The notes under the pieces are model-generated. The model had not been told where the DNA came from. It searched no databases and was given only the letters and a program-made list of their open reading frames with translations. Positions 3,001 to 58,100 of a stretch of 64,000 nucleotides of DNA are shown here, piece by piece (position 1 is the first letter of the stretch; each line of letters begins with the position of its first letter). Made by a program: the position numbers and the translations under genes. The stretch is taken from NCBI RefSeq assembly GCF_021028975.2, contig NC_059436.1, positions 25,668,001-25,732,000 on the forward strand, given 5' to 3'. Source of the stretch: Sphaerodactylus townsendi (lineage: Eukaryota).

Positions 3001-4141
3001 TAGTTTTGAAGTTATGTTATTTGTTATTGCCATTCATACTGTCTGTCTGGGGTTTCTACCCAGGCTCCACCCAGAACTGACGCCCGCCCGCCCGCCGCTC
3101 GCTCTGCGCTGAAGTCCCTCACCAGCCGGCTTGGCCGGTCGCCCTCTCAAAGCCAGACCTGTCCCCTGTAACTTCCTTGGTAGGAGCCCCGGACTTGTTT
3201 CCTGTAACACACCAAGACTATTGGCGGCTGGCCTGTGCCCTTGCGAAGCCCATCAATTCTACCTCCATTGCTCTGGGCTCTGGCCTCCGAGCAGCAGAAG
3301 ACCGTCAAGCGACCCTAGACAATGCGTGCAGCTATTGATTACTTATTGTTATTACATCCCCACCAAAGGTTGTGAATGTACATAATATGTGTTGTTTAAT
3401 CTTTCTGATATTGAATTGATTCATATGAAGATGCATTGAGCTGCAAAGTTGTATCTAATCTGAAGTATGATGTTTTGCCCCATTGGTGGTCAGCCCTCTG
3501 GTGGAGCTGGCTGCCGGGAGGAGATGGTTGAGTGTTATTATTTTAGCTCTGCATTGGTTTAATTGTGTGCCACCGTTATCCGGATCTTGTTTAGTTCAAT
3601 GTGTGTCTAATATTGCCTGCTTTGTGCAAGAAGCCCCTGAATTTCCCTTACCCCGCAGCCAAGTTCTAATGTTACACACAAGCAGCTTGGTCAGCTTGAC
3701 CAGATGAAGCGGAGGAGACAAGCGTCCCCTTCATCGCCCCTTAACATTTCGGTCCCCTTTTTTTTCTAAAATGCTTAAAGGAGGAGATGTAGTGATGCAC
3801 TGCTGACCCAGCAACACACCGTGGTGGAAACGTTGGGGCGCTAATGGACCTGGCTTGCTGGTGCGCCGCACCCCCACTCCTCATCCCCCTATGAGTCACG
3901 GGTCATGAACTGTCTGGCTCAGTCACCGGGCGCAGGGACAATGGTCTTGCCCCCAGGTGAGGATTAGGCTCAGACGCTTACGCTCCTCTCCGCAGTAGCC
4001 AGGTGAGATCATGCATCACATGATGATCTCCAGGTCTCCCGGTCTCCAGCTCATCTCCTACCCACCTCCTTTACCGCCCACAATGAAACCCTAATAAAAA
4101 AAAGGTGCGAGAGACCAGCACAGGTAGAGTTGTCAGGATCA
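1..4141 (+). mobile_element. Heavily degraded Ty3/Gypsy-type LTR retrotransposon (gag zinc knuckle, RT remnants, PPT and 3' LTR); 5' part lies outside the window
   Basis: About 384-425 encodes a frameshifted C-F-x-C-G-K-P-G-H-F..C CCHC knuckle. ORF 1053-1367 (V.QVL...LSSCK...NLKSELQS) resembles the Gypsy RT thumb motif LSKC.F...P.N.KELQSFLG. A purine tract AAAGGAGGAGA (3777-3787) is followed directly by TGT at 3788, with AATAAA at 4093-4098 and a possible CA end near 4141. Many indels; no intact ORF. Confidence 0.6.
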
Positions 4142-9800: not shown

Positions 9801-11562
9801 GACACACAACAGTAAAGCTGCTTTCAGACCTCGTTGGCGCAGGAGTCACTTTTGGCTTTTCCGTCTCAATGATCGTCTCTGTGATCATGGCAGCTGTCGT
9901 GCCTCCTGACAGAGCGGAACTTCCAAAGCCACCAAAACCAGGTGCTTTTGTGCCCCGTCGCTCAGCATCCCTCCGTGCCTGCTGCAATTCCTTGGCTTTT
10001 CGGCGCATTTCAGCTTTAGCCTCACGTTCTTGTGTCTAAGAAACAGAGATGCTACCAGTTATTAAAAACAAACTCAGTGCAACAAATCAAGGACCCCATA
10101 ACAACAGCAGGCCACTGACCCCTGCAGTTTAGACAGTAGCCAAACAGCTGCCCTGGAGGGCATCAGAGGAGAAAGAGGGAAGGTCTTGCATTCACCTCAC
10201 GGACAGCTCTGAAGACTTTCTCCTCATGTGAGTCCATCTCTGTGAAAGTGCGAATCTGGGCCAGGTTGACATTCTCCCGGTACCCGAGGGCAACGATCTC
10301 ATCAAAGGCAAAGATTAGATCAAAACAGTGATCAGAAATCTCATTCTCTTCCAAGGCTCTGCAGTACTCAGGGATCTGGGTGGAATGAAAGAATAAAACG
10401 GCTTCTGAAAACACGAAAAAGTTGCCATTCTTTTAATTTACCCTGTTCGTACCCTCCTTTTTCCACCATGAGATTGGCAGCCCAAAAACCAAATATCTGG
10501 CAAGGATAGCTCTGACCCCCAGATGGGACAGTTGTAATGAATCTTACGTAAAGCTGCCTTTGAAAACACACTGAAACCTTCAGTCAGTACAGAACTGGTT
10601 CGACTGGAGAGGGCACAGAGTGTCTTGCTAAGAACTGGGATGCCCAAGGTTCAACCCCCCTGCCTGCCCCTGCCATGGGAGACTTCCCTCCCTCTAAATC
10701 ACCCTGTGGGACTTGTGTGGCAGTGAGAGCAAGGCTGGAAACTACCTTAAGTGTTCAACGGGAAGCAACACGGCGCAGGAACCTCTACGCAGGCCGGTGC
10801 CGCAGCCAGAGCCCTGTCTGGGGCTGGTTGCTCAGCGGACCTCGCTGGCCGGGCGGGCACCGGGGCTGCTGCTGCCTCTGCGTGTGAGTGCGCGCGTGTG
10901 CCCCCTCGCCCCCCCTCGCTCACCACCCTGGAGAAGAGGCGGAGGGTCTCGAGGTCCTCGAGGATGTTGCTGTTCTTGGTGGTGATGAGCACCATGTAGA
11001 GCTTCTCCATGGGCTGGTAGACGTAGCGGACGCTCTCCGTCTCCACGAAGGTGTGCTGCTTGCCCGTGTTCATCAGCTTGGGGAAGGCGGCCAGCAGGCC
11101 CTCGATGCGCGTGCGCGTCATCTCCACGAACTGCCGCGACACGATCGCCTTGCCGGCCTTGGTGCACACGGCGGCCGCCAGCAGCACCTGCAGAACCCCG
11201 GGGAGACAGAGCAGGCGCGTCAGAGCGGACGCTCTCCGTCTCCACGAAGGTGTGCTGCTTGCCCGTGTTCATCAGCTTAGGGAAGGCGGCCAGCAGGCCC
11301 TCGATGCGCGTGCGCGTCATCTCCACGAACTGCCGCGACACGATCGCCTTGCCGGCCTTGGTGCACACGGCGGCCGCCAGCAGCACCTGCAGACCCCCCC
11401 CCGCCCCCCCGGGGGAGACAGAGCGGGCGCGTCAGGGCGGGCGGGCGGGCCAGCCCCCCCCCCTCCGCCAGGTGCGCCCCTCGCGCGGCCGGACCCCTCC
11501 CCCCGCCCCCCCCCCCCAGGCCGCCCCCTCCCCTCCCCTCCCCTCCCCTCATGACCCACCAT
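6883..11562 (-). CDS. ARCN1: Coatomer subunit delta (archain 1), 511 aa, 10 coding exons
   Basis: Exons (-): 11560-11562 (ATG only, gccgccATG|gtgggt), 10924-11187, 10196-10375, 9830-10035, 9155-9319, 8609-8774, 8039-8186, 7782-7890, 7416-7620, 6883-6972. All GT-AG; total 1536 nt. The protein [40 protein letters not shown]...[15 protein letters not shown] is unmistakable delta-COP. Confidence 0.97.
9590..9792 (-). mobile_element. 5S rRNA-derived SINE (5S-Sauria-like) in ARCN1 intron 4
   Basis: The reverse complement reads gcctgatctcctcagatctgggaagctaagcagggtccaccctggttagtatttgggtgggaga, a diverged 5S rRNA A/C-box region. A Sauria-type body (ggcaaaccacctc...gtcgccataagtcagctgtgacttgac) follows. 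A second copy lies at 60780-60990. Confidence 0.75.
11224..11435 (-). repeat. Tandem duplicate of the ARCN1 intron-1 branch point/acceptor plus the first 54 codons of exon 2
   Basis: 11224-11392 matches 11025-11193 at a 199-bp offset with one synonymous change (g11080/a11279). The intronic parts differ in C-run length. Confidence 0.92.
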
Positions 11563-28155: not shown

Positions 28156-31100
28156 CTAGCAAGGGAGAGCGCAGGACAACCAGTAGCATCAAGCACGACA
28201 CCCAGAGAAATCCCACCCCCCACCCGTGCCTTCCTGAGCAGGCTCCCGAACCCCCTCCTCAGCTTTTCCAGGCAGCCTCTACAACAGCCCCTCTCCTGCC
28301 AGGCTTGCTTTGACCAACCTCTGTTACCTCCACCTGCCAGCCTTTCATCTGGGCCAGACTGTTGCCTCTCACCAACCTGTAAACTCCAACAGCCTCCTTG
28401 GAGGTCTTCTCCAAGTGTCGGAACCGCATAGGCATCGGAAGGTCCATGCTGGTGGCCCTCCTGGAAATAGATTGCCGGCTTCAGAGCCTGTTGCACTGGG
28501 GCAGTGGGAAGGACCCCATGCCCCCCTGCCCCTGGCAGAGCAAGCTCAGTGCTGCTTGGCTCCCTGCAAACGGCAGAGGGGCTGGCCTAGAAGGCAGCTG
28601 GAATAGTTCTGCTCTCCAGGCCTGCAGCCAAGGTCTACTACGGGAGTCTCCCAGCCTCCTGTCCCCCTACCCACCGGGCAGACTTCAGCTGCACTTCCTC
28701 CTCCTCCTCCTCATTGGGGTTGTACTCAGGCGGCTGGCGGTGCTTGGAAGCCAGGAAGTTGAACATGTCGAAGGCAGACTTCCTGAAGGTCCAAAGAAAT
28801 GGGGCTCAGAAGCCACCAAGACGCCCCCTCCCCCCCCCCGAGGTTCCAAGTGCCTCACGTAGCCAGAATCACTTCTTTCAGCCTGGGGTGAGTGAGCCCC
28901 AAGACCCCGCCCCTCTCTGTGCACCCGCTGTGGGGGTGGGGCTGGGGGAACGAAGCCTCCGCTTGCCTCCGGTGCACCTCTGCCCTGGCACAGCCGTGTG
29001 GGTTGACTGGCGGCTCCTTGGCTTCCTCGGGCTTGTGGAACCGGAACTTGTAGTTGCGGCAGTGCTTTGCTCCAGAGAGCTGCTCGATCAGGAAGACGAC
29101 GGCATCGTGGAGGATGCCCAGCATTCTGAGCCCACTCACGCCTGCAAGGAACACACCTCGTGCCAAGGCAGGAAGACTGGCAGCTGCCCAGACTGAGCGG
29201 GGATCTGCCTCAGATTCAAGGAGGGGTGGGGGCAGCAGTGCCCTGCTTGGGGATCGCCAGAGCTCTGGTACAAAATGACCCCACCAGCAGAGGGTGACAA
29301 ACGGACCAGCCTCCACAAGGGAAGGCAGGGGATGTGTGTCAAGAGCGGCTAAAAGCCCCGATCCCTACTCGGATGTGTCAGCTCTGGGAAGCACCACAAG
29401 CTTTGTGACAAAACCAGTCAAGGAAGCAGCCCCCTTGAAGACAGAAGGATTTGCTTAGGAAATGAACCTGAGTGTCGGGAAAGGGGAATGCCCCTACCTG
29501 TGAAAGACAGCTGCTTCAGGCGAGCGTTGGAGCGGGCCTCCTGGACTCTGTCAGTCAAGCACTTCCAGGCATCTGAGACGGAGGAGAAGGAACACAAAGA
29601 CTGACGAGCCACACCGACCGCAGCTTCCCATTCCCTCCTTCCACAGTCAGAAAACCACTGAGACAAGCTCCGGCTGCTGACAGGTGGGGCCCTCCTGCAG
29701 CCCCTGAAGGGATCTGGGAGGGGTCACAAGTTGGCCCAATACAAGTGAATGCTGCTGCTGCTGCCGCTGCCACCAAAACACCCCCCACCCCCACCCCCAC
29801 CCCCACCTTCAATACTTTCGGAGCAGATCTGAAAGCCGTCATCACTTGAGATCTCAAAAATCAGTCCTTTCTTTGGCTTCCTCTCTGCCAGGCTCTCCTT
29901 CCTCTTCCGTTCTTGCTGCAGCCAGAAGATGAGAGGGGAGCTGAAAGGGCCCTCCTCCTCCTCCTCTTCCTCTTCCTCCTCCTCCTCTGCAGTTTTGGCA
30001 TCTGGAATAAAAACAGGCCCCTCTGCAGTCTGCAGTCCTCAGCCATGCCAAAGAGTTCTGTCTACATCGCTGCAGGCAGAGACTGGACTCAGCCAGGAGA
30101 GGCTGAAGTTTACATCTCCCACTCAGCCAGGAAGCTGGGGGGAGGGGCGGGGCTTAGGGGCAATAACACGACTTGCAGCTCAGTTGTGAGAAAAAGGCAG
30201 GCAGAGGAGTGCGGTTTCAAGGACACTCTCCTGGGCTCCTTGGAAAATGTGAGAGTTGCCAACCCTCTCATCCTTGGGGTTTTGAGGCAGCCTCACAGTT
30301 GGGCCAGGAAGTCCGTGTCTTTCACAAGAGCTGGAGTCCTGGCCTACGGACTGGCCTACTTGTTTATCTCGTGAATTTAAAACTTTTAAATGATGCCTTT
30401 CCCCCCAGTCAGGGTCCAAAAGGAAGCGAACATTAAAACATTGAAGCAATTACAAATCAAGTTAAAATGATTTTTAAAAATCCACTGAAAATGCAATGCC
30501 ATTCTTGGGTGCATGCCAGACACAACAAAAAGTTCTTCACATGGTAGTAGTGAAAGGCACCAATGGGAGTGAGACTGAGGAATCTCCCCAGGGTGGGAGC
30601 TCCAAAGTTCAGGTGCTGGGACAGAGGAGGCCAACCAAAGCTGGCACCGCGGAACAGAGCTGAACGTCATCTGCATACTGGTGGCAACTGAGCCCAAGTC
30701 TCCAGATGACCTCTGCCAACAGCTTTACACAGATGATGAAAAGCACAGGAGACAAGAGGGAACCTTGGGGGACCCCACATGCCAAAGGCCGAGAGGGGCG
30801 GAGCAGCAGCAGTCCCCCCGCACCACACTTAAAGGGCAGGACTGGAGCCGCTGCAGAGCAGGGCCTCCCAGTCCCAACCGAGTGGGGACATCCAAGAGGA
30901 GAAGAGAGGAGAAACGAACCTGCATTTTCTGACTTGCTGGCAGCATTCTGGGCAGGCTGTGATTCTGGGGGAGATGATGGAGTTTGCCTGTGGAAAGACA
31001 GCCAAGGGGGAGGAGAGAACGTGAGAACCCATTCTGGTTTAAGTTTTCGCATTCTTCACGGAGGCCAAAGCTACAAAGGCAGGTCAGGCTGTGGAGAAAA

Positions 31101-34100
31101 GACAGCGGGGGAAGAGGCTGCCACTTTAACGCCCGGTGACCAGCAGTCTGCCCAGACATGGAGCCCGGGTGCCTGAGCCCCACACAGGGAGAAGGCTGCA
31201 AAGCAGGAATGTTCCCGCACACAGACAGGATGCCCCCAGAAAAGGGGTGCCCAATGTCTACAGGTGAAAGCGTGTACTTTGGATTGTGCCCATAGAGGAA
31301 GCTGTTAGAGCAGCTTCTAACCTGGGCGAAGAGATGCCACCTCACTTTGTCATCCTGCTGATGGGGCTCCCACCTGGTGCCAACCTCACTCTCCTTCAGG
31401 GACCATTTTTAAGGGGTGGGGGCGGACCTTCCTTTCGCTGATTTCCTGGCATGCTTTTAGCCTGAGGATTGTTTTCATGCCTAGCATGGGAGGTTTCTGC
31501 TGTCTGTCTCACTTTAGCTGTGAGCCACCTCAGGTAGCCAGCACCGTGGGGAGGCGACACACACGCGTTCTATTTTTAAAATGAGAATAACCACCCACAT
31601 CAGGTGCCAGGCACAGCGGGAGGAGCCATCGTACCCTGGAGCCCTGGGCCAGGGCTGCTCCCCGTTTGTTGTGCCTTCAGGGCAGGAATCCTCACGTTTG
31701 AATGCAAAGCTGGCCGAGGTTGGCTTTCCCTTGTGGGCAGGCCTGGCCTCTGGGTGGTGTTTCTGGACAAGAGGCAAAGCCCTGCCTCTTGCTCAGGGCT
31801 GCCAAACCCAGACAGAGCCTGTGCAGGGCAAGGCTGGCAACGAGCAAGAGGCAGGGCTCTGCCTCTCGTCCAGAAACACCACCCAGAGGCCAGGCCTGCC
31901 CACAAGGGAAAGCCAACCTCGGCAAGCTTTGCATTCAAACGTATGGACTAAAACAAATAGAGGTGATCTGGAATCAGACAGGAGCCCCCGACTGACACGT
32001 AGCACCTTTGAACCTAGCACAGATGCTCCTCAGTCCCACCCCACCCCTGCTAGCTCTTTTTCCGTCTGGCATCCCCCCCCCCCGTACCCCCACTACAGCT
32101 GACAAAGCAATAAGACCCAGAAAGAATCCCCCCTCCCGCTCAGGGGTGTTGGAGGCCATCCGCTGGGCCCTCCGGCCCTTTCATTCTCCTGGCTGTGGAA
32201 CAGCCAAGCGGAAGGGCAGAAGCGGAAGGGCCGCGGAGGGGGCTCTCTCCTCTTACCCGACACACGAGGAATCCTGGGCTGCTGCACAGGCCCCTCGGTG
32301 GGACACGTGTTTCTCCTGCGAAGGGCCCCAAGGGTGAGAGGGTTTGTGCTTCTTCCCGGACGCTTTGCTGTCTGAGGAGGGCTGGAGCCTCTTCACTTTG
32401 AGCTTGGCTTTCAGGGAGCCTGGCCCAGAGCAGGCGGGGGCTGGCTGGTCAGCAGGTGGGGCAGCGGAGTGGGGATGGGCAGCCAGAGGGGAAGGTGGGC
32501 TTTGTTCTGGAGCTGCAGCATCAGCAACGTCCACCAACGGAGGGAAGCACGAGAGCGAAGCAGTCTGTGTAGGGACGAGGTCCTCCTTGGACAGGACAGT
32601 CCCGGTTTTGCTGCCTGGTCCGGGTGTCACAGGCTGGTAAGACCCTTCTGGGTCTGTGGTGGTGATGCCCACAGGCTGTGCTGAAGGCAAGGCACAGGGG
32701 CCCGAGGCTGCAGCCAGTGCGGAGGTGGGGCCAAGCTGTGAGAACAACCCCGAGCCAGTGGCTGGCCCACCCGCATGCTGCTCTGGGAGGCCCAGGCCCT
32801 GCTGGGAGGCTTTGATCAGCAGGCTGCTGAGAGAGCCGAGGTCTGGGACGCCCTGCAGTCCAGGGCTGCCCAGTGCCACTGACCCAGGTCCCAGCACATG
32901 CCCAGGAGCCGCTGTGCCCGCAGAAGACACTGCTGCTGATGTCTGCATAGGGACCACGTTCAGAACAGACGGCGTGGCACTGAGGCCAGCCACAGGTCCC
33001 GTGGCCAGGTGTCCTGATTCCTGCCCAGCCGCAGGAGGGGGGGTCCCAACCCCAGCTGCTGCAGCCTGGGGCAACAGGGTTGCCTGCTCAAAGTACATCA
33101 CCCCCGCCTTGGAGCGCTTGATGATGTTGGGGAGGGTTCTGTGGGGGGCAGAGTTGCTGCCTGTTCCCAGATCCAGCAGGCCCGAATGGCTGGGGAGCTG
33201 GGAGGGGGCGAAGTTGATTAGTGTCATGTTTGAGACCAAGTCAGGAGAGGCGGCAGAGGAAGGGGCCACCTTCTTATGCTTCCGTGACGGCAGGCGAGCG
33301 ATAGGCCTTTTCTTGACCAGGCCAGCAGAAGGGGTGGTGGCCGCAGGGCCAGCATCCGCCCTCTGAGTGGCTTCTGGCTCGGGTGGCTGCTGGACACCAA
33401 TCAGCAGGCCTGGGGCAGGGCTGCCAAGAGCGGGCGCGAAGCCACTCTGGGGCGCTGCGGAAAAGGAGTGCAGGTGCTGGTGATGCGGCAGAGGCAGCAG
33501 ACCTTTACTGGCCGGAGGAAAGAGCGGCTGGGACGAGGGCAAGCCGGCCAAGGCCAGCCCGGCACCCATGGGCCCGAGCACAGAAGGGCTGGCCTCCATC
33601 ACGCCCTGCGCAGAGCTGACGGAGGAGGTCAGCTGTATCTTCTGGGTGACCCCGTTGGGAAGAGTCTGCAAGACGTAGAGCGGCTGCATGTTCTGGTTCA
33701 CCACTAAAAGCTTCTCGGCAGCCGCCTTGAGATGGTGGGGGCCAGCCTGCGCAGCAGCACTCGAGATCTGAGACGGGCCCGGGCTCTCTGCTGAGTTGGG
33801 ACCGTATTTGGGGCTCTGAAGAGGGAGGGAGGGCGAAGCTGGGACCGGGAGAGCAGGTGTCCCGCTGTTCCTGGCCAAATCTTGGCTGGCTCCATGGCTT
33901 TGCTCAACTTGCCCACAGGGCGGGCTAGCAATATGGTCTGCCTCCAGGTGACCCTGAATGAAGGGGTCAGGGGTCATATGTCCTTCTGGGCTGGGGTCCA
34001 CTGGTGGGCTTAGGAGAGCTGGCTCTCCTTCACTCGTGGCAGGTTTCTCCGAGCCCGCCACTCTCTTTTCCGCAGAATCTCCGGAAGACAAAGCTAACAT

Positions 34101-37100
34101 CGATCTCTCCCCAGACGATTCTGAAATGACAGCCAGCCTGCTGTGGTTCTGGCTGGGGACCGCAGGGCTTCGAGTGGTTAAGACGGAGAGATCAGAAGGA
34201 AGTTCCAGCGGCAACTCAAACTGCTCCTCTGCAGATATTGATGACGAAACGCTGCTGTCCACTGGTTCTGTTGTTGGCAGTTGTTGAGAAAACACTTCAA
34301 AGAGGCCCATATCCTTGCCCCGGTTGCTGTCAAGACCCAGCCCCTCCCCCAGTGTCAAGAGTTCGGAGGAAGAAGACTCGGGACTCTCTCCCAGGGCCTG
34401 CATGGAGGGGGTATTTTTCAGGACAAAGTCCATGATATCCGAAGGGAGAATGTTCCCGCAGTCATCACTGTTGTTGTTGTCGGAGTCCGATTTCAGGAGC
34501 TCGGTGTTGAAGGTATCCAAAAGAGTTTTGTCCGAAGGAGTACTCGCACGAGGTCGGCGACCTGCATCCAAGGAGCTGAGCTGAGCTTCCAGTGAGTCCT
34601 GGCCCTGAGGTTTGACCCGGCAGTTCTCCATCTTTGGGTCGGTGCTTTTGGAGCCAGCTGAGGTCTTAGTGGCAGGAGCTTTCCCCCCACTTTCTTCACT
34701 CCTGTCAAGTTTTAGGTTTTCTGTCCCGTTCTCTTTGCCACCCCTTTTGGCCACTGGATTAACTTTCCTTGTGGTCACTGTGATGCTCGCATCACTCTCT
34801 GAGCCGTCATCCACACCGTCGAGCTGGGAGATTTTGGGAAGTCCACACTGCTCCTCTTCTCTGAATAAGCTGTGGGGTGCCAGGTGCTCCCCTGTGCTGG
34901 ACACCACGGTCCTGGCAAAGTTGTAGTAGTAGAGATCTTCTTCATCGGATGTGCTGACATCATCTGCACCGTCCACTTGCCCTTCAGCAGACCTCTTGCC
35001 TCGCTTTTTCCCAGTGGAGTTGCTGAAGAAGGGAAAGTCTTCTTCGCCATAAGACCTTACGCCATACAGGGGAGTCAGCCCAAAGAACATGTTGGATCTG
35101 GCCCGGGCGCTGCGCCGGGGGTACCGCCGCTTGTAAGCTCCATCTTCCTGTGCTTTAGCCCCGTCCTGGAGTATCAAGTTGCCATCTTGTCCGGGAAGAC
35201 CCTGGTAGGCATCTCTCTGGGACTGGGGAATGGAAGTGTCACCTGGTCTGTCCTGGGCCTCAGGCCCCGCTGCAGAAGAAGGCTCGGCCACAGAAGGCGG
35301 CTTGCTGTCCTGAGACACAGCGTCGGCATTGCTCTCCCTCGGCACGGTTCTGGGCTGGTTCTCCCCTTCCATCTTGAGGGGAGTCAGGGTGACTTTCACC
35401 GTGCGCTTCTGCGAGGTCTGCAGGTCTTTTGATGGGGCCAGTTCGCCATGGAAAGCAGGGGCCTTGGAGGTCCTCTGCAGAAGCGCGTGACTCCCGGCCG
35501 CCTTCTCCGCCACAGCCCTGCTGCAGGGCTCGGGGGCTGCTGGGTAAGCACATTCCAGCTCTGCGCTTCCTTCACTGCTGGCCGGGAGGAGGCTGGAACT
35601 GGAGAGGCGCTTGCTGGGAAGCCTCTCCTTCGTGCCCTTCTTGCCTGTCTGCCGCTTCTCTCTGCTCACGAGGGGAAGAGGCTCGCTGCCTGGAGGAGGC
35701 TTGCTACTCCCGTCAGGTGTCTTGGAGGCCTTTGCTTCCGCCTCCACAAAAGCCTTGGGTGTTTCTGGCTGGGGGGCGTCCGCCTGCTGGCTCTGCTCCT
35801 TCTTTGGGGCTCTCTGGTGGCAGAGCGGAGGGGCTGCCATGTCTTTGGGGGGAAACAATACGGGCAGAGGGTCCAGGAGCTTCTCTGCTGGGTTGGTGCT
35901 GGGCTCAGGACCAGCCATGCCTGCCACCGGAGCACCTTCCTGAGAACTCCCAGGGGGAGCGCTGGAGTCTTTGCAGCACAGGAACTTGGCTTTCTCGGCA
36001 TTTGCAGGGATGGCCCCTCCAGGAGGTGCCGCTGGCAAAGAGACGGATCCCTCCAGAGAAGAAACTTTACTTCCACTTGTCATGGCTGATTTCTGGGACC
36101 GAGGAGAGGCAGAGCTGCTCTGGAGAGCAGCACAGGAGGCTGCTGAGCCCTGCAGTGGTTCTGCTGGTGGTGTGCTCCAATCCTGCTGATCCTGGGAGGG
36201 TGCTGGGGACATGCTGGGCCTGGAGTGGGTGGCCCTGGCTCTGCTGGCAGACAGCAGCCAGGACCTGAACTGCAAGGGGAACAGAGGAGACACACTGTGC
36301 CTCCTGGAGCCAATTCTCCGGAGTCCAGATGAGAGCAGCGGATCTCCCACAGTCACGATCTCGTGAGTCACGGGGGTAGGACTCCCTGGAGGAGGAAGGG
36401 GCAGAGGAGAAGGAAAAAAAGAGAAGAGTTACAGAACTGAGGTTAGCAGGGGTCAAAGAGCAAGTCATCCCCTGAACATGAACACAGATCCAGCCAGGTG
36501 AGGGATAATGTATCATTCCAGCTCCCACAGACAACCTTTTCTTATATACGGCTGAGCCCTACTCTTCTTTCCCCAAGATGACCACAAAGGACACACAGAC
36601 AAGTAGGAGAAATGACACCAGACCGTCCACTCTAGTCCATTCAGCAGTTTGCTGGGCAGTGGCTCTTTAGGGTCTCAAGAACATGAGTCTTTCTACCTAC
36701 TAATTTTAAGGGGACACGCTACGGGGGATTGAAGCAGGCTTCCTCTGCTTGCAAACAGGTGTTTTACCACGGAGCCACTGCCCACGCCTAAGCGGAGCTG
36801 CTTTCTGCTGCAGTGGCCTCTCGAGGTACAAACTGCCCATTCTGTAGGCAAAGCTCTCTCTCAGCACCCCTTATTTTAAAAAAAACCATTATTTTTGCCA
36901 AGACTTATGAACAACAACAACAACAGTAAAAACACATTATTCAGAACATAAATAAAGCAATTTACTACGAAGGAAGGACCAATCATGGCAAAACCACCAG
37001 TGGTGTTCCAAACAAGGCCTTCTAGGACCAAGGAGTGTTTATCTACTCACACCTGATAGAATCTGCCTGCTGAGTGAAGTGTTTCAAATACTCTTTGACT

Positions 37101-52100: not shown

Positions 52101-55100
52101 CCCTCCCTCCACTGGGCCAGCTACCACTGATGCCCAGCGCCATTCCTCCAGCTGCACAGGCCACTGCCCCCTGTGCACTAGGCGTGGCCTCCTCTTCCTC
52201 TGGCCTTGGCCAACACATCCTCTGCAGGCCCAGCGTGGGCCCATCCCCTCAGTCCTGCACTTTGCCTCCCATCTTGCTTGCCTCTCCAACCTACTGACTT
52301 TCCTTCTGAAATCCTTACTCTGCCTTCCTCCTAGACCTCCTAGCACAACCCCCTGCTCTTGTCCCTTCCCAGCCTTGCCTTCCTGCACAAGGCACCCCCT
52401 TTTGCACTGTCCCCATCTCTGCTTGAAAAGAGGCCTCAGCACGTGGAACTGGGAAGCATGCAGATTCTTCCTCAATCCCCACCCCCCACCCCCACACTTC
52501 CAATCTCAGACTGTAAGATACTTGGGGCAGTGTCCTCTGTTTGTGCAGCTTGTAAAGTGCTCTGTTGCTACACAAATAAATGACAGACAGCCCTGCCTGG
52601 GACACGTCATGTGATTTTTTTGGTCTGGATTTGACACGTCAGAGCTGGGCCAGGAGGTTCAGGTGCCACCCACACAGCTAACCTTTATTTTCAGCATTTC
52701 AAGCAACATTTCAAACAGCAGCCTGTTCTGCAAAATATTGATAGCATTTATTGAATGTTACAGTCCAGCTTCAAATTACACTTTTCTATAGATTACAGAC
52801 CACTCCAATAACTGCTTGACAGACACTGCTGGCATCAGCCTCCTTACCTCCAGGTGTCCACTGCTGGCACAGAGAAAGCAGACCACTCTCGGAGTTATTG
52901 GTACAGAGGTCAGAATGCCCAAACCGCCCATCTCCCAAACATTCTCAGATTCGCAGTCCTCCTAAAAACCATTAAAAGGAGCATGTGAGAAGGGAAGCAC
53001 TCTGACACTTGATCCAGCTACAGCACTAAGTCAGGCATCAAACGGCGCCCTACAGATCCTGCAAAATGAGCCATTAAATGGCTCCCGGAGCCAACGCTCC
53101 CCTCACCTGTGGTGCTTTTTGTTAGGGAGCCCCTGCAACCCCAATTTTCTCACGCTAAGGACTCCTGCAGAGTTCCACAGAGGCCTGCCATGGGATTCTC
53201 CAAGGGGCGAGGAAAGTCTTTCCAATATTCAATGCCCAACTGTCCTTGAGCATTAAAAGTCACTACAGACTGAAGTGACTCTAAGCAGAACAGACCCCAC
53301 CCAACTTAGCCTTTTACCTTGAAGTCCACTCGGATCCTGTGGACTCCGTCTGCAACAGACTTCTGCTTGGAACTGCTGCTGTTTGACAGAGTGCTTAACA
53401 AGCTGAGCATGCTGTTTTCTGGCTTGCTGGCTGGAGGGGGCTTTTCCTGGAGAATTAAGGCAATTTGTAAACCCTAAATTCTACACTCTGAATCCAAAAG
53501 CAGAAGAGCTCTCATTGATTTCTAGACTGTGAGAGGAACTTCATAAGGAACAACCCGCCAGAATCTGGGCACTGCCTGGGCAGTTCTCAGCCTAGAACTG
53601 ATTCCAGCAGCTAGAATTAATACATGGATTTGATTTATGTTTTCCAATTTGTACCCCTCCCCTTTCCCAATGAACCAGGCTCAGAGCAGCTGACAACATA
53701 CAGACACAATATGCATAAATTAAAAATTACAGACATCTAATCTGACTAAAACATACTCCTATCCTGTGTACGGATGGTGCCCTCTAATAAAACCTAAAGA
53801 ACGAGTATTCCCACGTGGTGGCAAGCCAAGATGCTGTTGCTTATCACTAAAAAACCCACCTCTCTTGCTTGCCCTGAAGTCCAGGGAGGGGCCAAGGCTC
53901 AATGGCGGAATATCTGCTCAGCACACAGAAGGCCCCTGTTCAATCCCTGGCATCTCTGGTTAAAAAGGTCAAGTGGAGGGGATGTGAAAGACCCACACAG
54001 CAACTGCCAACCTGAATGGGCATCGGCCTCATTTCATGCAAGGCAGCTCCTTGTGCTCCAGTGTGCGGCCACACGAAAACAGAGTGAGGATGTGAAAGAA
54101 AGAGCAGGAGTCCCACCAAAGGCAGCCGACACGCGAGTGCCAGTTTCGGAGAGGGAGGCAGAGCTGGACGCCATTCTGAATCTACGTAAACTCACGGGCT
54201 CCTGAAGAGCCTGCACATCTGCACAGGAGCAGCCAATCGTGAAAAAACTGGAGACAAAACTCAAACAGCAGGTTACCTTTTCTTTTGGCTTCTGTTTCAC
54301 TGGTAAGCTTGGACGAGGAGGGATTTTCTTTTGTTTGCTTTGCTCTACACCTAGGAAAAGTATAAGCACACCTTGTCATAACCTAAGAGTTGCCACTAGA
54401 AACCAAGAGGAGTCTGGAACTTGAGGTAAGATCAGGTTATATGTGGACAGCAGAAGACAAGTCGCTCTTTTGCAAATGGAGAGAGTAACCACCTTGTGCC
54501 CATGTTGGGGGGGTTGCAGTCCGACTGGTATCAGCTGTCTCCAGAAGGCATAAGAACATTAGAACAAGTCTGCTGGATCAGACCAGAGTCCATCTAGTCC
54601 AGCTCTCTGCTACTCGCAGTGGCCCACCAGGTGCCTTTGGGAGCTCACATGCAGGAGGTGAAAGCAATGGCCTTCTGCTGCTGCTGCTGCTCCTGAGCAC
54701 CTGGTCTGCTAAGGCATTTGCAATCTGAGATCAAGGAGGATCAAGATTGGTAGCCAGAGATCGACTTCTCCCCCATAAATTTGTCCAAGCCCCTTTAAAA
54801 AATATCCAGGTTAGTGGCCATCACCACCTCCTGTGGTAGCATATTCCAAACACCAATCACACGTTGCGTGAAGAAGTGTTTCCTTTTATTAGTCCTAATT
54901 CTTCCCCCCAGCATTTTCAATGAATGCCCCCTGGTTCTAGTATTGTGAGAAAGAGAGAAACATTTCTCTCTGCCAACATTTTCTACCCCATGCATAATGT
55001 TATAGACTTCAGTCATATCCACCCTCAGCCGTCTCCTCTCCAAACTAAAGAGTCCTAAACTCTTCAGCCTCTCCTCATAAGGAAGGTGCTCCAATTGCTC

Positions 55101-58100
55101 AATCATCCTCGTTGCCCTTTTCTGCACTTTTTCTATCTCTTCGATATCCTTTTGGAGATGTGGTGACCAGAACTGAACACAGTACTCCAAGTGCGGTCGC
55201 ACCATGGCTTTATATAAGGGCATGACAATCTTTGCAGTTTTATTATCAATTCCTTTCCTAATGATCCCCAGCATAGAGTTTGCCTTTTTCACAGCTGCCA
55301 TGCATTGAGTTGACATTCCCATGGAACTATCAACTAAGACGCCCAAATCCCTTTCCTGGTTTGTGACTGATAGCACTGACCCCTGTAGCGTGTATGTGAA
55401 GTTTGGATTTTTTGCCCCTATGTGCATCACTTTACATTTTGCTACACTGAACTGCATTTGCCATTTCTTAGCCCACTCACCTAATTTACCAAGGTCCACT
55501 TGAACTCTTAGGCAATCCTTTTGCGGTTCTCACCTCACACTACATAATTTGGTATTATCTGCAAACTTCGCAACCACGCTACCCACCCCTACTTCCAGGT
55601 CATTTATGAATAGGTTAAAGAGCACTGGTCCCAAAACGGATCCTTGGGGGACACCTTACATCTCCATTGTGAGAACTTCCCATTTACACCCACTCTTTGT
55701 TTCCTTGTTCCTCAACCAGTTTTTAATCCACAGGAGGGACTTCCCCTCCTATTCCTTTTGATTACTGAGTTTTCTCAATAGTCTCTTGTGAGGAACTTCT
55801 TGTCAAAAGCTCCTTTTGGAAATCCAAGTAGACAATGTCCAACTGGTTCCCCCCTTGATCCACACATGCCTGTTTACACCCCCCTCAAAGAACTCTATAG
55901 TAAGTTTGTAAGACATAGATTTGCCTCTGCAAAAGCCATGCTGACTCTTTCTCAGCAGGTCTTGCTTTTCTACATGTTTTATAATTTTATCTTTAAAGAT
56001 AGATTCTACTAATTCTACCAGGAACAGATGTCAAAACTGACTGGCCTGTAATTTCGGTCCCCCCTAGATCCTTTTCTTTAAAGATTGGTGTGACAAGTAT
56101 TGGCCATCTTCCAGTCTTCGTGATGGAGGCAGATTTCAGGGATAAGTTGCATATTAAAGTGAGAACATCAGCAATTTCATGCTTGAGCTCTTTCTTGGGT
56201 GAATGCAATCTGGGCCAGGGGATTTGGTAGCATTTGTTTATCAATGGCTGCCAGAAATTCTTCCTTGTCTACCACTATCTTCACTAGTTCCTCGGATTCG
56301 CCTCTCCCAAGAAGCACACATGGTTCCAGGTGCAGGAATGTTCCTCACCTCCTCTTGGGTGAAGCACAGGATGCAAAGAATTCATTCAGCTTCTCTTGCA
56401 ATCTCCTGTCATCTTTAGCAATGGCACCCATTGTTCCTTTTGTCACTCCTAACTGGCTCTACCGCTTCCCTTGCTGGCTTCCCTACTTTTGATATATACT
56501 TTGGAAAGAACTGTTAGTTGCTGGTCTTGATGTTTGCAGCCATGCGTTCCTCATAATCTTTTTGCTTCCCTTACAGCTAACTTGCTTCTCTTTTGCCACC
56601 ATTTGTGTTCCCTCTCATATTCTTCATTAGGCAAACTGGACTTCCATTTTCTAAAAGACATTTTCTTTTTTCTGATCATTTCCTCAACCTCTTTTGTTAA
56701 CCATGGGGGCTTTCTTTTGGACTGGGCGCTGCCTTTCCTAACCTGCGGAACACATTCCAGCTGGGCTTTTATTACTGTGTTTTTAAATAACCTCCAAGCA
56801 TCTTGGACAGTTTTGACTCTCTTGATTTTCCCTTTCAGCTCTGGAAAGGCAGCTCTGGAAAGCTGTGGGAGGATCTGAAATATGGGGTCTGGCAGCAACC
56901 CCCGCCGGCCATCATGCAGGATGTGGCTCAACAGCCGCATGAAGCTCGCAGGGAAGACTGCCTGAGTACCCCGAGTGAGGTCGCATCCATATGCAGGTGA
57001 CATTCAACTCTGCTTCTTTTTCCCCAGCCATCAAGCTAGAGACAGCGCCAAGCCATGGTCTGAGTCAGTCATGTGCCAAGACTGAACAGTCACTCGTCAG
57101 CATGGCCAGGAGGGACCCGTGGAATCAGCTTGCTTTGGCTGGGGCTGCACTTCCTCTGAAGGAGCAGTTGGGAGCGCTGCCAGATCTAGTCTAGCTGGTA
57201 AAAGCATGAATCTCCTCTAAGGCAGCCTCTTCAGTTTTGACTGGTGCGCCAGCCACAGCACTTCCTCCAGACAGGATCTGTCCACAGGCACACATGGACT
57301 ACTACAATGCACTCCACACGGGGCAGAGATTTCCATGGCTCAGAAGGTGGTGGGAAAGGCTGCCGCCGGGCGTACCTCCCTTGTTTTAAGAGTCCCACAG
57401 TGGCTGCCAGTTTGCTCCGAAGGGCATATCAGAGTGTGAATGACCTACTAAGCCCTGCACCGTCTGGGACCAGGAGGCCTGAAGGAAAACCAGCAGAGAA
57501 CACCAGAGGCCCTGCTGCGTGCCCCCTTCCCTTGTCTGAGTGAGCCCCAGCGACAGGGACTTCCCTGCCGGGGGGAGGAAATGCCTTTCTCACTGAAATT
57601 CTCCTGGAGTCCAAACTTCCATTGTTTAGGTATCAGGCAAGGAGTTTAAGATTTGTTTTCATTCCTCATTTCAACTGAGCTTCCGGCCAGTTTTCATTCG
57701 GCCAGCCTTGCTGCTTGTTCTCATTCCCACTTTTTATTCTGTTGGTTTGATCACGCCTTTAGCTCACCGGACAGGGCTGCTTTTATCCCATGCTGTCATG
57801 GCTGACTTTATGCTGCACCTGTTCCTTCCCATGGTTTATTGTTATTGGCTCAGGCTTGTGAGCAGCTTCTGATGCTGCTGCTGCGAGTGGGTGATCCAAA
57901 GGCTTTTAACCCATCACAACAGCCAGCACTGTATCTGGCTCAAAGGGAAGCTCTGACCGGAGAAGACTGTCTGCTTCTCAGGGGACAGCTGACCGGTATC
58001 CAAGGAAGGTCCCAAGCCCTGCCCCACACCCACCCCTCTGCCCCCTTCCCACCCTGACTGCCCAGGCAACAGAGGTCTGGCCTTAAAGAGGCCACTGGTA

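Follow-up and report, generated by a model that had tools for sequence, protein, structure and literature searches.

Short-range template switches, described by a four-point model, replace a short stretch of DNA by a reverse-complement copy of a nearby one, and the type 3-2-1-4 together with its mirror is reported for 31 % of the human-chimp events (PMC5453318, PMC7954356). Copied lengths in great apes are given with a median of 12 and a maximum of 128 (PMC7954356). In KMT2A itself, the human variant c.10835+1G>A leads to a heterozygous in-frame loss of exon 28 (81 nt) and was reported with Wiedemann-Steiner syndrome in one family; that report blamed a broken contact of the N-terminal fragment with the C-terminal one, argued without protein data (PMC5473876). 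The same variant was described in a child without Wiedemann-Steiner syndrome, whose father had passed it on and had no medical history (PMC7039996). Intronic hairpins created by template switching (PMC10710096) and exon skipping after an inverted duplication (PMC6549551) are already known from the respective reports; what sets the gecko locus described here apart is that KMT2A has lost a coding exon.

A literature search found no report of this gecko locus, supplements being outside its scope and one query with "gecko" being confounded by the GeCKO CRISPR library. The window, i.e. the whole stretch of 64,000 nucleotides of Sphaerodactylus townsendi DNA that was analysed, contains a 101-bp hairpin next to exon 28 of KMT2A. 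With a probability of about 0.8, we read it as the scar of one short-range template switch: the pyrimidine tract of the exon was replaced, the exon remnant is frameshifted, and the mRNA observed skips in frame from exon 27 to exon 29. Of ten runs listed, four (X3, X4, X5 and X6, the last from a relative) were compared with positions 29940-32600 at 80 % likeness. The features of the locus are:

32257-36385, minus strand, KMT2A exon 27, a large exon with a phase-2 donor after 32257; placed by tblastn and junction search, with an RNA joint to exon 29

31948-31967, minus strand, acceptor-like intronic TAG named by the original prediction; not the exon-28 acceptor, its use leads to a stop within 4 codons

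31842-31942, minus strand, template arm, older single-copy sequence of intron 27, present once in X6

31795-31841, minus strand, spacer of 47 nt, not inverted, with 5 extra letters in X6

31694-31794, minus strand, new arm, reverse-complement copy of the template arm

31691-31693, minus strand, ancestral exon-28 acceptor (GAG), now without pyrimidine tract; placed by orthologue alignment, the AG at 31691-31692 is retained

31635-31690, minus strand, exon-28 remnant of 56 nt, frameshifted, donor intact; placed by contig comparison and orthologue alignment

30920-30987, minus strand, KMT2A exon 29, 68 nt, in RNA spliced without intermediate exons to exon 27 and exon 30

The affiliation to KMT2A, encoded on the minus strand, was established by homology. 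The best homologues of exon 27 were gecko proteins, Euleptes europaea with 79 % and other geckos with 72-77 %, and the remaining exons found, through FYRC and SET, mapped in order at high identity (tblastn). Exons 28 and 29 are too short and too diverged for tblastn; exon 28 was placed by orthologue alignment. Gene, exon number and the damage to the exon had been named correctly by the original prediction, and exon 28 does map to this place. According to the prediction, the hairpin separates the exon from an acceptor of its own at 31948. The start of the orthologous exon, however, is 31690, with the AG in place; the TAG 31948, in a region also covered by X6, lies there far upstream in the intron, ahead of exon 28, and the part that was lost is the pyrimidine tract. 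Orthologue matches are split between two frames, IPALKAQ in one frame starting at 31690 and a match of ten residues in another frame ending at the donor 31635, thus the remnant is frameshifted. Its G run (31660-31663) is one base shorter than in X6, and the X3 and X4 contigs have the same gap-free state as the window. If the 56-nt remnant were spliced in, translation would end at a stop in exon 30; the direct joint of exons 27 and 29 keeps the frame open. In four gecko proteins exon 28 comprises 63-69 nt. Further protein searches yielded no more gecko proteins reading past exon 27, with P0121 ending at the donor. The gene model of Heteronotia binoei (P0006) carries unrelated sequence over exons 28-29, either an annotation error or another disturbed locus.

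Elsewhere in the window, an open stretch on the minus strand within a KMT2A intron (54798-55529) presumably resembles a LINE reverse-transcriptase fragment. A tandem repeat of 199 nt (1.9 copies, 98 % alike) is located at 11025-11398, in a gene which we take to be ARCN1. With it, a partial copy of a minus-strand coding exon, acceptor included, lies immediately upstream of the complete exon; it is either a real micro-duplication or an assembly slip.

The two arms of the hairpin are identical at 98 of 101 positions, the three mismatches being 31712/31924, 31769/31867 and 31777/31859. In KMT2A-sense RNA two of them become G-U and one U-C, so that 100 of 101 positions pair; recount and folding confirmed the geometry that had been predicted. 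Among the 22 inverted repeats of at least 25 nt in the window the hairpin is the sole long pair. Its fold has an energy of -285.8 kcal/mol (z = -22), and none of 100 shuffled sequences was as stable. A small self-matching palindrome (31847-31866) at the inner end of the template arm adjoins the switch point, with both G-U mismatches in or beside it; it may be a polymerase stall site or an older switch.

The hairpin is real and not an assembly artefact, which the original prediction had named as a possible refutation. Run X3 originates from a different sample of the same organism as X1, the run that best represents the sequence. One X3 contig (29995-31768) crosses the outer junction with one difference and no gap, another (31739-31897) crosses arm, spacer and arm with no difference. 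Since both junctions recur in X3 DNA, hairpin and frameshift are not assembly errors; the differences between the arms are also present in X3, which runs counter to a foldback artefact of the assembly. No pile-up was observed over the arms at 80 % likeness (X3 0-57, X6 9-47), while true repeats nearby reach a depth of 4451, thus the arms are not a multi-copy element. Intron 29 harbours repeat fragments (30385-30473 and 30652-30918) on which many contigs pile up in all four runs. Coverage by run X5 (organism B) is patchy, and its contig 31809-31968, which matches the window, crosses neither junction and is therefore uninformative on the hairpin. Another X5 contig, 778 nt long, aligns with the tail of exon 27 (32272-32456, 185 nt) at 33 differences, beside contigs identical to the window; this points to a diverged copy or to a second organism within the run.

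The state without the hairpin was found in X6, DNA of a relative that differs by 90 substitutions over 2477 aligned bases (about 96 % identity). A single contig of 8113 nt spans the locus on one strand, with collinear flanks on both sides. It joins 31695 to 31792 and is without 31696-31791 (96 nt); nine other letters stand there instead, which form on the sense strand a pyrimidine-rich tract ahead of the exon-28 acceptor. The arm 31842-31942 is kept once, together with the spacer, so the history was indeed not a clean insertion, as the original prediction had cautioned. An extra base after 31659, in the G run of exon 28, yields, as far as the listed changes go, an exon of 57 nt in frame. The 57-nt frame aligned better than the predicted 75-nt frame with six of six lizard exon-28 peptides (scores of 27-55 vs 12-34); the latter (REDSCPEG...) is not orthologous at its 5' end, and its agreement with the orthologues is confined to the final ten residues. 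The in-frame orthologues agree with a single-arm ancestor. By parsimony and protein orthologues, with one informative relative, the hairpin most likely arose after the single-arm state; the X6 allele is approximate, being rebuilt from the differences listed, beyond which the comparison counted 112 substitutions, 7 indels, 339 loose ends and 530 pieces. In addition, 30406-30438 (33 nt) is missing from X6, which has 24 letters more after 30627.

The product of the switch can be read from the comparison with X6, and a template switch is the most likely event behind it. On the sense strand, synthesis would have run up to the GAG ending at 31792, which then paired with the CTC 47 nt behind it (31842-31844). 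From there 96 nt of the older arm, present today as the inverted copy, would have been copied backwards. The return probably took place 9 nt further on, just before the acceptor, via a 2-nt match (5 of 7), and would have deleted the tract. With its tract gone and the foot of a 101-bp duplex 2-3 nt away, an already weak acceptor would have left the exon unused, and the 1-nt deletion seen in the remnant may then have accumulated in the unused exon; the one RNA run has exon 27 joined to exon 29. Switch first and deletion second is the order suggested by X6, because its exon is in frame and has the tract. The microhomologies at the edges, 3 nt and 2 nt (the latter 5 of 7), are short enough for chance, and in a DNA fold of the X6 allele the priming stem was not part of the minimum-energy structure. 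Switching within a strand and between strands would both fit, since the spacer is not inverted. If the copy dates to the species split, 3.7 mismatches are expected between the arms and three or fewer have a probability of 0.5. The three mismatches in 101 positions therefore fit neutral decay, and selection for pairing is not apparent from them; the duplex is probably a by-product without function. A G-U bias as sign of selection was considered and rejected, two G-U pairs from two transitions having an estimated chance probability of 0.25.

A rough splice model was built from this gene with 26 acceptors and 25 donors; of 30 junctions four doubtful ones and one more donor were left out, and the acceptor of exon 30 was set from RNA. 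True KMT2A acceptors scored -1.3 to 12.6. The ancestral GAG acceptor of exon 28 had -6.2 in the window vs -1.4 in the approximate X6 allele. The donor 31635 scored 5.8, with 5 of 25 true donors lower. The TAG 31948, predicted to be a strong acceptor, is middling in this rough model (7 of 26 true acceptors score lower), although it was correctly located, as were the donor and the early stop on reading through.

Run X4 was classed as RNA by its depth pattern (exons about 215, introns about 8) and a GT-AG joint; it is a single run with library and tissue not on record. Among the joints listed, only exon 27 to exon 29 occurs (30986->32256), with GT-AG ends, a depth of 215 and in frame; this is the skip that the original prediction had offered as one rescue of the frame. 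A loose end at 30920 agrees with the beginning of exon 30. In X4 the remnant of exon 28 is seen only in a contig at intron level (30959-31686, depth 7.85), which continues across the donor unspliced. Of five X4 records with a likeness of 99 % or more, four are among those listed, and judging from the bin depths a further one would not fit over exon 28. The uncovered stretch 31687-32255 was not counted as evidence. Skipping from exon 27 to exon 29 thus dominates in this one run; contigs drop rare forms, so a minor or tissue-specific inclusion may occur. The animal likely lives without exon 28.

A tentative alternative, which we consider somewhat improbable, concerns the causal order: exon 28 would have been fully skipped in an ancestor already, and switch and frameshift piled up in a dead exon. 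Hairpin origin and present state are the same as in the template-switch reading and only the order differs, so the two overlap. The acceptor of X6 is already a GAG at the bottom of the range (-1.4), while all 26 true acceptors are CAG or TAG, and the exon is already down to 57 nt vs 63-69 nt in the four other geckos. Against an early death of the exon, the changes reported for X6 keep it in frame, with tract and donor in place. The closest homologue among those listed, Euleptes P0001, is without exon 28, and so are 9 of 107 scoreable proteins (120 compared, 13 without anchors), of which seven skip it cleanly and two are aberrant bear models; exons missing from gene models can, however, be annotation misses. 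The clean skips are the models P0001, P0038, P0039, P0057, P0099, P0107 and P0109, from gecko, tinamou, turtle, whale, bat, newt and echidna. The distribution is hinting at an exon that is optional across vertebrates. Exon 28 was probably weak before the switch, given the GAG acceptor and the Euleptes model, and for the same two reasons the switch may not be the cause of the silencing.

It is improbable, though compatible with a template-switch origin, that the intronic duplex serves as source of small RNAs (a de novo miRNA or hairpin siRNA) or as heavily edited dsRNA. A near-perfect 101-bp stem in an expressed intron would be suited to this, and template switches are reported to create intronic miRNA hairpins; the preferred stem in that report has, however, about 35 bp vs 101 bp here (PMC10710096). 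An Rfam search of the whole window at gathering score gave no match, and there is no sign of conservation. No T>C changes on the plus strand were present within the part covered by X4, the arms being outside the coverage.

Even less credit can be given to the splicing switch controlled by RNA structure that the original prediction had proposed. The duplex would gate a rescued 75-nt exon via the cryptic CAG 31710-31712 and the 1-nt deletion, and inclusion would follow the opening of the stem by ADAR or a helicase. As predicted, both the 75-nt frame and the alternative of 7 plus 128 nt are open; the former is a multiple of three only thanks to the deletion, the sole non-wobble mismatch of the arms falls on the C of the CAG, and the donor 31635 is still plausible. 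The acceptor 31709, however, is scored lower (-10.5) than any of the 26 true acceptors; it lacks a tract and lies within the stem. The donor of the microexon scores -2.8, below all 25 true donors, and neither rescue joint occurs in X4, one run of contigs. Open in-frame exons result from five AGs between 31787 and 31643; chance alone would therefore be expected to supply one. A usable acceptor with an open orthologous frame was not found, the 56-nt remnant being frameshifted and the in-frame cryptic acceptors scoring -7.8 to -10.5. The structure gives no sign of being conserved or kept by selection: the hairpin is absent from the 96 %-identical X6 and decays at a neutral rate, with three mismatches vs 3.7 expected at most, and the two G-U pairs are those that chance would give with a probability of 0.25. 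A variant of slightly lower probability still is that after the loss of the acceptor a new 75-nt exon was rebuilt inside the hairpin, with a substitution creating the CAG of the new arm and the 1-nt deletion setting the frame, and is gated by opening or editing of the duplex in other tissues; if true, a splicing switch would have been born in one step in an essential chromatin gene.

MITEs and foldback transposons have long inverted arms around a short spacer. Despite this resemblance, the insertion of such an element with an ACGT target-site duplication, as the original prediction had it, or an inverted copy made by the assembly is hardly credible, as X6 holds one arm and the spacer and not an empty site, no target-site duplication exists, the arms show neither a multi-copy pile-up nor another copy in the window, and both junctions are present in the DNA of the second sample.

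Under the template-switch reading, the gecko protein would be about 19 residues shorter than that of the relative, within a variable linker about 60 residues before FYRC, and FYRC and SET would be intact. This position follows from P0060, where exon 28 (3613-3640) ends about 60 residues before the Pfam FYRC domain (3700-3779). With a mean identity of 0.36 over 22 proteins exon 28 is the least conserved of four scoreable stretches, a fifth being mis-anchored and left out; exon 30 has 0.85. A vertebrate whose main KMT2A mRNA lacks exon 28, outside the Pfam FYRC domain, suggests that the exon is dispensable or its loss compensated, and the gecko makes the dispensability directly testable. The human variant c.10835+1G>A concerns the same exon and the same junction of exon 27 to exon 29 (PMC5473876, PMC7039996). 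It is reported in the heterozygous state, while the skip in the gecko is the dominant mRNA in the one run seen.

The locus is therefore seen as a template-switch scar at a retired exon rather than as a regulated switch, and we claim no new regulatory device. The mechanism is known; the example is unusually complete, with the states before and after in close species, the lost splice signal, the frameshifted remnant and the skip joint in RNA. Its setting is a dosage-sensitive gene, where it shows how a single local copying error can retire a coding exon. From MITEs and foldback transposons the gecko hairpin differs as a single copy with no target-site duplication and no empty site in the relative. 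With the short-range template switches of type 3-2-1-4, as far as they are characterised in the reports (PMC5453318, PMC7954356), it shares the reverse-complement replacement of a short stretch and the resulting inverted repeat, as well as the uninverted spacer, the close points 1 and 4, the order 3-2-1-4 and flanks collinear with the relative. It differs in the copied length of 96-101 nt, near the top of the reported range but within it, and in its landing site, precisely the pyrimidine tract of a coding exon which is skipped today. The template-switch-born intronic hairpins share the birth of a near-perfect stem in an expressed intron in one step; the gecko stem is about three times as long as the 35 bp given as preferred for the miRNA hairpins (PMC10710096). 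The inverted duplication in human MANBA is described as a microhomology-mediated template switch, as the gecko copy may be, with a short gap at the return point and with in-frame exon skipping, there attributed to a hairpin in the pre-mRNA (PMC6549551). According to that report, it comprises 13.1 kb, is Alu-mediated and pathogenic, and has the exons inside the duplex, whereas the gecko copy has about 100 nt, is common to several samples and leaves the exon outside the stem with its tract deleted.
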